The notes: a model not told the origin generated them from the sequence alone. Shown: positions 60,507-64,000, numbered from the stretch's first letter. The stretch: 64,000 nt of DNA from an uncultured Gammaproteobacteria bacterium (GCA_964515545.1 CAZERI010000001.1:69625-133624); one strand, 5' to 3'. Program-made: numbers and translations.

Positions 60507-61295
60507 TTAAAAAAGAAGAGATCCAACTGTTACGTTAAAGCGTTTGGCTGCACTCTTCCCCTGGGCAACGACCTCGAGGAATCGATTCTCACCATATCCA
60601 GAACTTCCAATAATAAGTCCTGCTTCCTCATTTGGAACATCCTTTAACCGGTTATAACAGGTAAGTTCTCCGATAGTGGTGGCAACTATCTTTCCTGGAG
60701 AGAAGAGGATATCATCAGCAAAAAGTGTGGTTTTGCAATTTCCAAAATTATCAATAAACCAGATCGCCTTAGGAATGTCAGGGATGTTCTCAAGAGGGTA
60801 ATCAGTACTGGGAAGATCCTTTCCTTCTTTTAGCCAATGTGCTACTCGAGGGAGGAAGTCATAGCTGCGAAACTGCGTATGAACAATATGATTTCTTTCA
60901 TTCTCTGTGAGATCTCCAGACTCAACCAGGAGAGAAGTGACAGCTGGTATATCAAAGAGATTGAACTCTCTGAGAAGTCCTAACTTTTTGACTAAAGAAA
61001 GAGTTACTCCATCAACGCTTGCAACAACTAAAGTGTTTTTGAGGGTAAAGTATCCAAAAGGTGTTCCATTAGGCCATTTTTTACCTCTACCGTGACGAGG
61101 AGCAACGTTTACCAAAATAACACCTTCTTGCCCCTCAGAGGCATCAAGCATGTCAACTAAGTTTCCGCTTGCTTCTAACTCATCCTGCTCTATCCCTACT
61201 GTGGTAACAGGAGAGTTAAAAAGCGCCATCGCGCGGGTAGCTTGACGACCAAAAGCATTTTGGTCCCGACAATCATTAATAATGGTAACAAACAT
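60507..61295 (-). CDS. possible SAM hydroxide adenosyltransferase / fluorinase-chlorinase family (DUF62-like) protein
   Basis: Weak by-eye alignment of N-terminal TIINDCRDQNAFGRQATRAMALFNSPVTTVGI to fluorinase-family [20 protein letters not shown]...PDVTVVDV. Confidence 0.35.
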   Translation of the reverse strand: MFVTIINDCRDQNAFGRQATRAMALFNSPVTTVGIEQDELEASGNLVDMLDASEGQEGVILVNVAPRHGRGKKWPNGTPFGYFTLKNTLVVASVDGVTLSLVKKLGLLREFNLFDIPAVTSLLVESGDLTENERNHIVHTQFRSYDFLPRVAHWLKEGKDLPSTDYPLENIPDIPKAIWFIDNFGNCKTTLFADDILFSPGKIVATTIGELTCYNRLKDVPNEEAGLIIGSSGYGENRFLEVVAQGKSAAKRFNVTVGSLLF

Positions 61296-61712
61296 AGATT
61301 AAAATAAAAAAACCTCGTAAAGAGGATCAAAGGGAGAAGACCGGTTCCTTCTGTAGTATACAACGTGCCTTGGCAAAGTCAAGGTGAGGAATCTTAAATG
61401 CATGGTTTTTAGGGGTAAGGGGGAGATTTTCTTTCCTCTTGACAGCCTCGAGGAAGCTATGGTACTATAGCTTTTACAGTAAATCGAAAAATTCGTTTTT
61501 TATGCCTAGATTTTCACATAGATTTTCTACTCCCAATTAGGGACTCTACTGGCCTCCAAAACGCTTTTTTTGTTTTACTTTCTTCCGATTAAATCGGAAT
61601 TCGCACCTTTTGAAGTTTTTTTACTGGCCAACTTAGTTATTAGTCTATAGCGTATAGCGGTTAGTTTTAGGGTGCAACTAAGTACTAATGGCTAAGAACT
61701 ATATCTAAATAC

Positions 61713-61785
61713 GGGCCGGTAGCTTAGTTGGTAGAGCGTCGCTTTTGCACAGCGAAGGTCGAGAGTTCGAATCTCTTCCGGTCCA
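61713..61785 (+). tRNA. tRNA-Ala (anticodon UGC), with a G3:U70 wobble pair; no encoded CCA
   Basis: Cloverleaf folded by hand: acceptor GGGCCGG/CCGGTCC with G3-T70, D-arm TAGCTTAGTTGGTAGAGC, anticodon loop TTTGCAC, T-arm GAGAGTTCGAATCTCTT, discriminator A. Confidence 0.9.
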
Positions 61786-61874
61786 CACTTTGGCAAATTC
61801 AGCAAAGCTGAAATTTGGCAAAGAGATCGAAGAGATGAGAAGCAAGCAACGCAAGTTGCAGTCCCCGTAGGGGA

Positions 61875-61891
61875 AATCTCTTCCGGTCCAC
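61875..61891 (+). repeat. exact 17-nt direct repeat of the tRNA-Ala 3' end (AATCTCTTCCGGTCCAC; first copy 61770-61786), 105 nt downstream
   Basis: Both copies read from the sequence; identical over 17 nt, and over 19 of 20 including flanks. Confidence 0.65.
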
Positions 61892-61954
61892 CCATTCGAC
61901 TCGCTTTGCTCGCTCAGGGCAAGCCAGCTAGTTTAGCTTGTCAATTTGGACAAG

Positions 61955-61977
61955 CCCCCTAGTTAGAGGGGGTTTTT
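61955..61977 (+). terminator. intrinsic terminator-like hairpin CCCCCT-AGTTAG-AGGGGG + T5 between tRNA-Ala and the 23S rRNA
   Basis: 6-bp G/C stem followed by TTTTT. Confidence 0.5.
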
Positions 61978-62089
61978 CCAAATTTGATAAGAGAGCTCTT
62001 TAACAAGTGAAGAGAATATTCCGTCCACAGCCGTGGATGGAATAAATGTTTTTGTCTAGTCCCATGAAAATTGGGACAAAATAAAAATC

Positions 62090-64000
62090 TACTCATAATG
62101 CCATTAATGGATGCCTAGGCAATGATGACCGAGGAAGGACGCACACGGCGGCGATACTCGTCGGGGAGGGGCCACGACCCTTTGATCCGGCGGTCTCCGA
62201 ATGGGGCAACCCACCAGCTTGTCTGGTAGCCTGCAGTAAACATTAGTCGTAAGACTATAATAGCTGTTGAGCTGGGAACGGCGTGAACTGAAACATCTTA
62301 GTAGCGCCAGGAATATAAATCATATGAGATTCCGTCAGTAGCGGTGAGCGAAAGCGGAACAGTCTAAACCACTTTATGTGGGGTTGTAGGGCAGACGATA
62401 TGTGATGAAGTATAGATAGCAGAAGGACTCGGAATAGTCCTCCAAAGAACGTGAAAGACGTGTATGCGAAATATATACTTCCGCTAGTTTGTACCTAAGT
62501 ACCATGGAGCACGATAAACTCTGTGGGAATCCGGGTCGACCACGATCCAAGACTAAATATCAGCATTGACCGATAGTGAACTAGTACCGCGAGGGAAAGG
62601 TGAAAAGCACCCCGGGAGGGGGATGAAATAGAACTGAAATTAATGGCTAACAAGCAGCGAAAGTCTCAGCAATGGGATGATCGCGTGCCTATTGAAGAAT
62701 GAACCGGTGAGTTATTGTTTGCAGCGTTAGTTTAAGCAAGTTTCCTTGCGTAGACAGAGTGAAAGCGTGCCCTAACCGGGCGATAGTTGCAAGTAATAGA
62801 CCCGAAACTGGGTGAGCTAACCTTGAGCAGGTTGAGTCCTACAGAAATGTAGGAGGAGGACCGCACTCGTTACCGTAGCAATGGTATGAGATGACTTGAG
62901 GTTAGGGGCAATATGCCAATCGAACCCAGAGATAGCTGGTTCTCCCCGAAATATATTATGGTATAGCGCTATGTATACTCTTACGGGGTAGAGCACTGAA
63001 TGGTTCGTGGGGGAGCAATCTCTCGCAACCAATCAAACTCCGAATACGTAAGATTTAGCATAGTAGTCAGGCTGGTCGGGCTAAGCTGATCAGTCAAAAG
63101 GGAAACAGCCCAGACTCCCATTTAAGGCCTCTAAATCAAAGCTAAGTTTTGAAGGAAGTCAAGATCCTTAGACACCCAGGAAGTTGGCTTAGAAGCAGCC
63201 ATCTTTTAAAGATAGCGTAACAGCTCACTGGCGGATGGTTCTTGGCGCCGAAAATTTATCGAGGATTAAGCTTTGTGCCGAAATTGGAGATTTGTTAGTA
63301 ATAACAAGTGGTAGGGGAGCGTTCTATTTGCAGTGAAGTTGGAGTGTAAACTCTGGTGGAGCGGATAGAAGTGAGAATGCCGGTATGAGTAGCGATAGAT
63401 AGGTGAGAAACCTATCCACCGAAAGCCCAAGGTTTCCTCCGCAATGTAAGTCAGCGGAGGGTTAGTCGACCCTAAGGGTATTCCTCGTTAAAGGGGATTA
63501 GCCCGATGGATAATCCGTTAAAATTCGGATACAGATTATATGTATGTAAGGGAGTTTCGGAGTTGGAAAAGCAGAGCTGGCTCCGGCCAGTCCAAGCAGT
63601 GAGATAGTGATGATCGGCAAATCCGTCTGTCACGTTTAATTAAGCTGTGAGTGAAAGTTTCCTAGTAATAGGGGATAATTTTGTAGTTTTCAGTTCCCAA
63701 GAAACGCTTCATTACGATCCGTAAGGATCAAAACATATAGTTTTTCGTACCGTATTACCGACACAGGTGGGCTGGTCGAGTAGACTAAGGTGATCGGGAG
63801 ACAGAGGTTTAAGGAACTCGGCAAAAAAGCTAGGCGTAACCTATGGGAGATGCCTTTCCGCAATGAGATTTGCGGACACAGCAAAAGAGTATTTAGCGAC
63901 TGTTTATCTAAAACACAGGTCCCTGCAAAGCTGAAAAGCAACGTATAGGGGCTGACACCTGCCCAGTGCCGGTAAGTCAATGATTGTCGGCTGATCCAAG
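62090..64000 (+). rRNA. rrl: 23S ribosomal RNA, 5' approx. 1.9 kb (continues beyond the window); no 16S gene upstream within the window
   Basis: Conserved 23S blocks GGATGCCTAGGC, GAACTGAAACATCTTAGTA, GATTCCGTCAGTAGCGGTGAGCGAA, CCGACACAGGTGG, CTGCCCAGTGCCGGTAAG at the expected spacing. Confidence 0.9.

Follow-up and report, generated by a model that had tools for sequence, protein, structure and literature searches.

A tRNA-Ala-derived hairpin module in the tRNA trailer of a stand-alone 23S rRNA operon from a Levybacteria-like Patescibacterium

In plant mitochondria, short tRNA-derived structures known as t-elements lie inside longer transcripts next to genes; they have no anticodon domain but keep an acceptor-like stem stacked on a T-stem-like helix and a T-loop, their cleavage sites have been mapped experimentally, and these tRNA-like acceptor/T-arm structures are processing signals for RNase P and RNase Z (PMC1920247). 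In Escherichia coli, 3′ETS-leuZ is a conserved RNA in the 3′ trailer of a tRNA in a polycistronic precursor; it is released by tRNA processing and acts as a sponge of Hfq-dependent small RNAs by linear base pairing (PMC8166272). A third described situation concerns tRNA 3′ ends that occur as direct repeats: the attL and attR attachment (att) sites of elements integrated in tRNA genes can start at a T-loop sublocation, and repeats of 15–25 bp are common for islands in tRNA genes (10.1101/2020.11.02.365908). Here we analyse a 64-kb stretch of DNA (CAZERI010000001.1:69625-133624; the window, with coordinates counted from its first letter) in which the 3′ end of a tRNA-Ala gene recurs shortly downstream, ahead of a 23S rRNA gene, and we describe the hairpin module, here called M, of which the second copy forms part.

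The lone tRNA that ARAGORN finds in the window is a tRNA-Ala(UGC) at 61713-61786 on the plus strand, the strand of all features below unless stated otherwise. Rfam places it at 61713-61785 with 70.2 bits; read directly, the gene at 61713-61785 has a G3:U70 pair and A73 and does not encode CCA, as CAC follows. A repeat search finds the 17-mer AATCTCTTCCGGTCCAC exactly twice in the window. Copy 1 (61770-61786) comprises tRNA positions 58-73 plus C74, copy 2 (61875-61891) is followed by CCC, and just 88 nucleotides lie between them. Similarity between the repeats stretches to 22 nucleotides at 91%, no third copy exists in the window even at two mismatches, and shuffled sequences give an expectation of 0.00 matches, so the duplication that the first-pass annotation had reported is exactly placed and non-random. 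The region from 61296 to 62200 is 100% identical in five independent metagenome assemblies of one strain; the locus is therefore not an assembly artefact.

Comparison with related loci gives good support to the view that copy 2 supplies the 3′ strand of a hairpin module which is conserved but optional, derives from tRNA-Ala and sits in the tRNA trailer. In the window, M is a closed hairpin at 61822-61894 that the covariance model R1 matches with 71.7 bits (E 1e-17), the sole strong match in the window, and whose minimum-energy fold, computed on the isolated segment, has a closing stem and two internal hairpins. Its 5′ side is an antisense strand, GATCG plus AAGAGAT (61825-61836), recognized in folds and in the alignment; its complement, CGGTC and ATCTCTT, is found in copy 2 and no less in copy 1. 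Next come a single-stranded GAGAAG (61837-61842), formed by invariant or near-invariant columns of a 13-sequence alignment, the variable hairpin A, GCAAC-GCAA-GTTGC (61846-61859), and hairpin B, CCCC-GTA-GGGG (61863-61873); the structured segment that had been noted between the two copies is thus present. M is preceded by a trailer hairpin, H0 (CTTTGGCAAATTCAGC-AAA-GCTGAAATTTGGCAAAG; 61788-61823), found as inverted repeat I14 and in the folds. H0 and the antisense strand together repeat the tRNA 3′ end and trailer in inverted orientation, and hairpins homologous to H0 occur in the related loci L103/L090, L014, L026, L055 and L094.

The 13-14 distinct versions of M are about 60-105 nucleotides long, and all lie directly 3′ of a tRNA-Ala gene. 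They share a layout that begins with a variable strand of the form U-GGACCG, followed by AAGAGAT, the invariant GAGAAG and 0-2 variable hairpins, often with GNRA-like loops; after these come AGT, a C/G-rich hairpin, an A and AATCTCTT-C-CGGTCCA, mostly with CC(A) next. In outline, GAGAAG leads to between one and three variable hairpins that carry compensatory changes, and these to AAATCTCTTCCGGTCCA, which CCA often follows. The 5′ strand is complementary to the copy of the tRNA end, and every version, folded alone, yields the same closing stem and internal hairpins. M therefore reads as the ‘top half’ of tRNA-Ala. The 5′ strand consensus, U-GGACCG-AAGAGAU, which looks like the tRNA’s acceptor 5′ strand (GGGCCGG, but with A for G3) running straight into the 5′ strand of its T stem, pairs with AUCUCUU-(C)-CGGUCCA, the counterpart of the T stem’s 3′ half, the acceptor’s 3′ half and A73, usually with CC(A) next. 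The consensus thus has an acceptor-like stem stacked on a T-stem-like helix and an N73-CCA-like 3′ end, and it lacks the T-loop of a tRNA-like element: the UUCGA of the tRNA is replaced by GAGAAG and the hairpins.

Several lines of evidence indicate that this structure is maintained. Run on seven type-1 versions, RNAalifold returns the closing stem and both hairpins, and 6 of the 17 pairs have double-sided changes, a count matched by 3 of 500 shuffles. In the same seven sequences 91.6% of cells are paired, against at most 61% in slid controls, and the covariation score is 0.261, against 0.113 ± 0.027, a value reached by none of 500 shuffles. The closing stem is 82-84% paired, compared with 38-60% in slid controls, and because its G-U-type cells (18) outnumber those of the A-C type (7), an RNA of the plus strand is favoured. 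All four predicted pairs of hairpin A are compensated across species (GCTTC/GAAGC, GCTAC/GTAGC, GCCAC/GTGGC, GACTC/GAGTC), and hairpin B, found in all M versions, reads CCCT/AGGG in L103 and L090 and GGT/ACC in L083. In L097, where the 3′ strand has changed from GGTCCA to GGTTTA, the 5′ partner has become the matching AAATTGG. A comparison with L103, whose 23S rRNA is 96% identical to that of the window, shows the backbone of M kept, hairpin B compensated from C-G to U-A and hairpin A swapped for another hairpin, with 32- and 53-nucleotide indels in the adjacent spacer. Over greater distances, GAGAAG and both stem halves are invariant across lineages in which the 5′ domain of 23S rRNA is 68-80% identical and the neighbouring spacer cannot be aligned.

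To follow M across relatives, orthologous loci were gathered through the neighbouring protein gene, and one genome per species was scanned for the 3′ 22-mer of the tRNA (67 loci). Most loci have no second copy, including those of the close relatives L073 (23S 98% identical), L012/L013 and L102, and L014 lacks it while keeping the first trailer hairpin and a degenerate 5′ part; the idea of a universally conserved processing element, raised as a possible outcome in the first-pass annotation, thus does not hold. The second copy is found 43-103 nucleotides downstream in L021, L024, L026, L032, L047, L055 and L068. A motif-based metagenome scan adds M in L083, L090, L092, L094 and L097, and the version in L103/L104 is that of L090. 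L097 and L048 have M after a tRNA-Ala(GGC), within a CGC-GGC tRNA cluster and with no 23S nearby. Since the adjoining tRNA-Ala(GGC) of L097 has a 3′ end, ATTCCCCTCAGGTCCA, unlike M’s 3′ strand, M is an independent unit rather than a local duplicate of the gene beside it. When a covariance model built from 13 M versions was searched against 667 kb from about 80 genomes plus the window, strong matches (at least 51 bits) lay only directly after tRNA-Ala genes; the next tier (at most 25 bits) held the degenerate L048 copy, tRNA-Ala genes themselves and a few scattered weak matches, and no dispersed or divergent copies emerged in this search space beyond the known set, tRNAs and the L048 copy. Among 118 tRNAs over all loci, the 3′ end is repeated downstream for tRNA-Ala genes only. 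CCA follows the M copy in 7 of 13 distinct versions, whereas the tRNA itself is followed by it in 7 of 71 loci. A search for tRNA-Ala loci with other 3′ ends, by way of more remote homologues of the flanking protein, reached loci that had lost synteny and were uninformative.

Lineages with and without M are intermingled on a tree based on 23S. What follows copy 2 in L024 is homologous to what directly follows the tRNA in L059, and the two loci therefore differ by an indel bounded by the repeats. Within the clade of the window, M is present, whole or as remnants, in the window, L090/L103, L094 and L014, so loss in L073, L012 and L102 is the simplest reading. The locus is also mosaic. L073 shares with the window 98% identity over 2 kb of 23S, 98% over the promoter and leader, and the whole tRNA, and the flanking SAM_HAT-like protein is just 71% identical; L086 and L092 are about 95% identical in the M core and just 74% in the 23S 5′ domain; and the tRNA-Ala of the window differs from that of L090/L103 at six positions in the anticodon stem despite 96% identical 23S. 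These comparisons suggest that the tRNA-M-23S region has been exchanged horizontally between lineages. Taken together, the alignments indicate that M is derived from tRNA-Ala, is found only directly downstream of tRNA-Ala genes (UGC or GGC) and is easily lost or decayed. As a separate observation, the sequence that follows copy 2 in the window (61891-61942; CCCATTCGACTCGCTTTGCTCGCTCAGGGCAAGC) closely resembles that immediately 3′ of the L047 tRNA (CCCATTCGTCGCTTTGCTCCTCAGGGCAAGC), a locus in which M is placed farther downstream; trailer modules appear to have been reshuffled between lineages.

Because the antisense strand can pair with either copy of the tRNA end, the transcript has two competing folds. 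Fold I combines the cloverleaf, H0 and the M hairpin; in Fold II a long hairpin forms from copy 1, H0 and the antisense strand, and the 5′ half of the tRNA pairs with copy 2. The minimum-energy structure of 61713-61990 is Fold II (−113 kcal/mol, z = −6.3), which is favoured by 1-6 kcal/mol in 10 of 10 M-bearing loci folded, energies that take no account of tertiary contacts in the tRNA or of the order of folding during transcription, each of which favours Fold I. In L097 Fold II is impossible, since the T stem and acceptor of the adjoining tRNA are different. We treat bistability as a real property of the sequence, with a putative functional significance.

We propose, with a probability of about one half, that M is a co-transcribed, tRNA-Ala-derived structured trailer RNA, similar to a minihelix or a t-element, that acts in cis in processing or end definition. 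M would be transcribed along with the tRNA on the plus strand and would fold as an independent hairpin; as a tRNA-like minihelix or t-element-like part of the 3′ trailer, it would mark, through its structure, a site of processing or punctuation, or would provide a protective end. It could be recognized by enzymes that act on tRNA ends (RNase P, 3′ trimming enzymes, CCA-related machinery), by which the tRNA would be parted from downstream pre-23S or intergenic RNA, and the bistability of the transcript might modulate maturation of tRNA-Ala. Like the mitochondrial t-elements, M is short, tRNA-derived and without an anticodon domain, and it sits inside a longer transcript next to genes. Unlike them, it is bacterial, follows directly after a genuine tRNA-Ala, has GAGAAG and hairpins where t-elements keep a T-loop, and is known from sequence alone. 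With 3′ETS-leuZ it shares its place in a tRNA trailer of a polycistronic precursor and, as proposed here, release by tRNA processing; the difference is that M is a closed hairpin that mimics the tRNA’s own 3′ end rather than a sponge that pairs linearly with sRNAs.

Some features of M weigh against this proposal. M is dispensable, being absent from L073, L012 and L102 and decayed in L014, and about 8 of some 55 informative genome representatives carry it. The top of the stem is weak in the window’s own version, with an A × C mismatch at 1:72 and just five pairs, most versions have A3-U70 instead of G3:U70, and a T-loop is absent, which makes M a poor tRNA mimic in detail. The closing stem has no double-sided covariation because its 3′ strand hardly varies, the covariation sample is small (7-13 sequences) and phylogenetically structured, and the covariation of hairpin A could partly reflect replacement by non-homologous palindromes.

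An equivalent module in the candidate phyla radiation (CPR) is not described in Rfam or in the searchable literature, where only unrelated group I introns in anticodon loops are found (PMC13011429), and a search of Rfam at E up to 10 gave nothing credible across 61787-61894. M is a plausible new RNA motif of narrow distribution. Should it be a functional RNA, it would add a structured motif to the very small CPR/Patescibacteria catalogue, and it would be an unusual case of a bacterial tRNA-derived ‘top half’ used in cis beside its parent tRNA. That would bear on how polycistronic tRNA-rRNA precursors are punctuated in organisms with reduced RNA-processing machinery. A practical warning also follows, in that a short repeat of a tRNA 3′ end is insufficient evidence of an integration scar.

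The main rival to a cis-acting trailer RNA, which we consider possible though clearly on the doubtful side, is that M arose neutrally and has no function: template switching or replication slippage would have duplicated the tRNA 3′ end and trailer in inverted as well as direct orientation, with copy 2 kept identical by gene conversion with copy 1 and the unit passively spread by tRNA-23S recombination between lineages. Copy 1, H0 and the antisense strand do make one long quasi-palindrome, as expected of an inverted duplication, and the mosaic locus (23S 98% and flanking protein 71% identical) fits passive spread. The clean deletion of M between the repeats (L024 vs L059), its decay in L014 and its general dispensability point the same way, as does drift of the 3′ strand where there is no identical adjoining copy 1 (L097) or where the motif is degenerate (L048). 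What a neutral duplication leaves unexplained is the invariance of GAGAAG and the stem halves across lineages with such divergent 23S and spacers, the compensatory changes in hairpins A and B and in the L097 stem, the enrichment of CCA after copy 2, and the excess of G-U-type over A-C-type cells, which indicates constraint at the RNA level.

A second alternative takes the 17-mer pair as attL and attR at the T-loop sublocation of tRNA-Ala and M as the conserved end of an element that has suffered internal deletion, comparable to a cis-mobilizable element (CIME); the source element would be kilobase-sized, would encode an integrase, and would be bounded by AATCTCTTCCGGTCCA and end in GAAGAGATGAGAAG. 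The repeat, identical at 17 of 17 nucleotides from position 58 to 74, starts in the T-loop and ends just past the discriminator, as is typical of T-loop-class att segments, and, as for attL/attR in tRNA genes (10.1101/2020.11.02.365908), presence and absence are bounded by the repeats. A related genome, L034, shows that classic repeats of this general kind occur: at L034:4130-4325 on the minus strand, at least 38 nucleotides of the 3′ part of a tRNA-Ala(GGC), from the anticodon loop to A73, recur 113 nucleotides downstream with no GAGAAG motif, a classic anticodon-loop-type, half-gene att-like case. At the M loci, however, there is no integrase or other element gene near the repeat, the neighbours being SAM_HAT-like, trxB, trx, dsbA and dsbB genes, and in 87 loci with the 16-mer (about 60 genomes) the copies are 43-105 nucleotides apart where they flank M and never more than 119, with no intact element or relative of one. 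Viral contigs gave 0 matches to the tRNA 3′ 22-mer and 0 to the M pattern, and no phage or plasmid matched 61760-61990 in a BLAST search. Moreover, the interior is structured and covarying rather than decaying or foreign, M in L097 stands without a partner beside a tRNA with a different 3′ end, and the arms of the inverted repeat are 30-75 nucleotides apart, not the roughly 7 of a recombinase core. The integration scar that the first-pass annotation raised is for these reasons unlikely.

A little less likely still is a selfish, site-specific palindromic mini-element, akin to miniature inverted-repeat transposable elements or repetitive extragenic palindromes, that homes to tRNA-Ala 3′ ends. 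Its small size, its termini resembling inverted repeats, its patchy distribution, its presence at two kinds of tRNA-Ala locus (UGC and GGC) and the near-identity of the M cores of L086 and L092 across divergent 23S 5′ domains are all in keeping with such mobility. Yet each locus has one copy, and none was found away from tRNA-Ala in the window and 667 kb of loci from about 80 genomes, so the many copies at unrelated sites that mark a dispersed palindromic repeat are missing from this sample; no transposase or candidate enzyme was found, and we know of no target-site logic for a mini-element homing to tRNA-Ala. A likeness to long terminal repeat (LTR) elements may be mentioned here. The primer-binding sites of retroviruses and LTR elements are complementary to a tRNA 3′ end. 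As in M, the complementarity stops at position 58/59, but the antisense strand of M does not cover the CCA tail, pairs in cis with the copy of the tRNA end and has no reverse transcriptase nearby, and the resemblance is probably just formal. We also observe that tRNA position 58 marks both repeat boundaries, 61770 and 61836 (A58 is the first nucleotide of the direct repeat, and the antisense strand stops opposite A59); it is likewise the boundary of T-loop-class att sites and that at which reverse transcription stops at m1A58.

Two further possibilities build on the competing folds. We regard as very improbable that M represents an undescribed class of tRNA-derived riboregulator in which the antisense strand would toggle between the tRNA 3′ end and a decoy copy with an encoded CCA; if it did, the precursor would yield either normal tRNA-Ala or a T-loop-interrupted form, in two pieces or otherwise disabled, and these minimal-genome bacteria would be able to control tRNA-Ala supply, or rRNA read-through, by RNA alone. 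Least probable of all is that copy 2, with its encoded CCA, serves as an alternative 3′ exon and replaces copy 1 in the cloverleaf, as drawn in Fold II. The precursor would then be a tRNA-Ala with an insertion of about 105 nucleotides between positions 57 and 58, which would be cut, for instance by RNase III in the 33-bp helix of copy 1, H0 and the antisense strand, to give a two-piece tRNA, or which would act as a switch that throttles tRNA-Ala output. The computed preference for Fold II in all ten loci, the CCA encoded after copy 2 and rarely after copy 1, and the placement of both repeat boundaries at position 58 agree with an exchange of exons. Against it, M-less relatives use copy 1 alone, which shows that the tRNA needs nothing from M to be complete; folding during transcription and the tertiary contacts of the tRNA speak for a cloverleaf that includes copy 1; L097 cannot form Fold II; and to our knowledge no bacterial pathway joins or uses such split tRNAs. 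The remaining candidates were rejected: a standard or permuted transfer-messenger RNA (none reported by ARAGORN, no T-arm in M and no coding room before the 23S), mimicry of an rRNA site (the GAGATGAGAAG motif was not found in the 23S or 5S of L014) and, by eye, a hammerhead, K-turn, T-box stem I or integron attC, for which stem count, consensus nucleotides or partner parts are wrong or missing.

M lies within what is, on good evidence, a stand-alone rRNA operon at the end of the window, composed of promoter, leader, tRNA-Ala(UGC), trailer, conserved hairpin, boxA and processing stem, 23S and 5S. Rfam detects bacterial large-subunit rRNA (RF02541) from 62086 to the window end (1363 bits); the 23S gene at 62086-64000 covers the first ~1900 model positions and runs off the window. 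At threshold, Rfam finds nothing else in the 64 kb besides the tRNA and this rRNA. It detects no small-subunit rRNA, so that the 61.7 kb upstream of the operon are free of 16S and no 16S adjoins the 23S; tRNA-Ile is absent from the window, since ARAGORN reports just one tRNA. The full unit can be read in L014, where tRNA-Ala is followed by 23S, 5S and the gene of an S1-domain protein. The unlinked arrangement described in the first-pass annotation is therefore real; it is also known, as unlinked rRNA genes have been reported as common or typical in Patescibacteria (10.1101/705046). Transcription of the tRNA-Ala-23S-5S unit probably starts at a promoter-like site, TTGACA-18-TACTAT with a TG extension (61439-61468; 10 of 12 positions in a consensus scan). 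The block around it, 61425-61582, has 98% identity to L073 and about 92% to L090, and the sequence farther upstream is not conserved. In the leader, GCACCTTTTGAA at 61603-61614 corresponds to GCTCTTTTTGA in L012 and L014 and, judged by its sequence, may be a second boxA-like element upstream of the tRNA, which would permit modification of RNA polymerase before the spacer hairpin.

Between M and the 23S gene, an inverted-repeat search and a hairpin scan identify a conserved spacer hairpin (61943-61984) with a core, CCCCCT-AGTT-AGGGGG, at 61956-61972, followed by TTTTT to 61977. Its stem covaries (CCCCCT/AGGGGG, CCCTCC/GGGAGG, CCCTCT/AGAGGG), and the hairpin with loop CTAGTNAGAG is kept in L012, L014, L073, L102, L024, L059, L051 and L021. 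The G+C-rich hairpin and the U-run are those of an intrinsic terminator, but the U-run is not conserved in orthologues: T5-T6 follows the hairpin only in the clade of the window, with TTTAC in L024 and L059, TTATC in L051 and L067, TTAGT in L021 and CTTTT in L047. Ten nucleotides after the hairpin, locus comparison reveals a boxA-like sequence, GCTCTTTAACAA (61995-62006), which we take to match the rrn boxA core of E. coli exactly; nearly all related loci have a variant of it some 100-110 nucleotides upstream of 23S. Together with the following GTGAAGAGAA it forms the 5′ strand of the 23S processing stem (61995-62016), and in L014 the boxA-like sequence and GTGAAGAGAA pair with the 23S 3′ flank, TCTCTTCACTTGTTAAG. 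A pre-rRNA hairpin followed by boxA is the standard boxB-boxA arrangement, and the resemblance to the boxB-boxA-boxC and leader-trailer helices of rrn operons is close: a hairpin, then within about 10 nucleotides GCTCTTTAACAA, upstream of an rRNA, in a region that pairs with the rRNA 3′ flank (PMC10250234). It differs in that the operon here is 23S-only and boxA itself lies in the processing stem; NusB/NusE binding is putative. We thus read the spacer hairpin, in a boxB-like position, and the boxA-like sequence as an ordinary rRNA spacer signal. The terminator that had been called odd for a co-transcribed unit is present as a hairpin with T5, but it is not odd, as this conserved hairpin beside a boxA-like sequence and a processing stem is normal for an rRNA operon; it may have a partial terminator role in the clade of the window. 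Nothing about the unlinked operon, the boxA sequence or the processing stem is out of the ordinary.

Two other hairpins precede the 23S gene, each found as an inverted repeat. The first, TATTCCGTCCAC-AGCC-GTGGATGGAATA (62017-62044), is lineage-specific, being absent or replaced by another hairpin in L012, L014, L073 and L103; the second (62049-62087; inverted repeat I5) stands directly before the mature 23S 5′ end and is near-identical in the same four. The conserved 23S leader strand GUGAAGAGAA (62007-62016) is complementary over 7 nucleotides to UCUCUUC in the 3′ strand of the tRNA T-arm (61776-61782) and in copy 2 (61877-61883). Copy 2 could pair transiently with this strand of the processing stem, or the match may be a coincidence.

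The sequence comparisons place the host of the window among the Levybacteria/Levyibacteriota-like Microgenomates, as a Levybacteria-like CPR Patescibacterium. This placement rests on homologues of the flanking SAM_HAT-like protein of 262 amino acids and on genomes with the same tRNA 3′ end; by 23S, the closest species representative is L073, a Levyibacteriota metagenome-assembled genome. The flanking gene, at 60507-61295 on the minus strand, lies beside the trxB-trx-dsbA-dsbB cluster. Its product matches the C-terminal domain of S-adenosylmethionine hydroxide adenosyltransferase weakly (25.3 bits against a cutoff of 25.5) and is widespread in Patescibacteria, with 1640 homologues. An open reading frame of 67 amino acids on the minus strand (61692-61895) was rejected as a gene, as it has no Pfam match and overlaps the tRNA.

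Two further observations concern the operon. An assembly of the same strain at 2x coverage (ENA ERZ4216102; L005:1300-1580) is without 83 nucleotides equivalent to 61692-61774, that is, the last 21 nucleotides of the leader and tRNA positions 1-62. The junction reads AATGG|CTTCCGG, and H0, M and the rest are intact; the gap is either an assembly artefact or a real variant without this tRNA-Ala. Finally, the 23S of L014 (L014:2037-5278) is 3242 nucleotides long compared with the 2925 positions of the model, which puts about 300 nucleotides of insertion beyond the part covered by the window; insertions in CPR rRNA genes are known.

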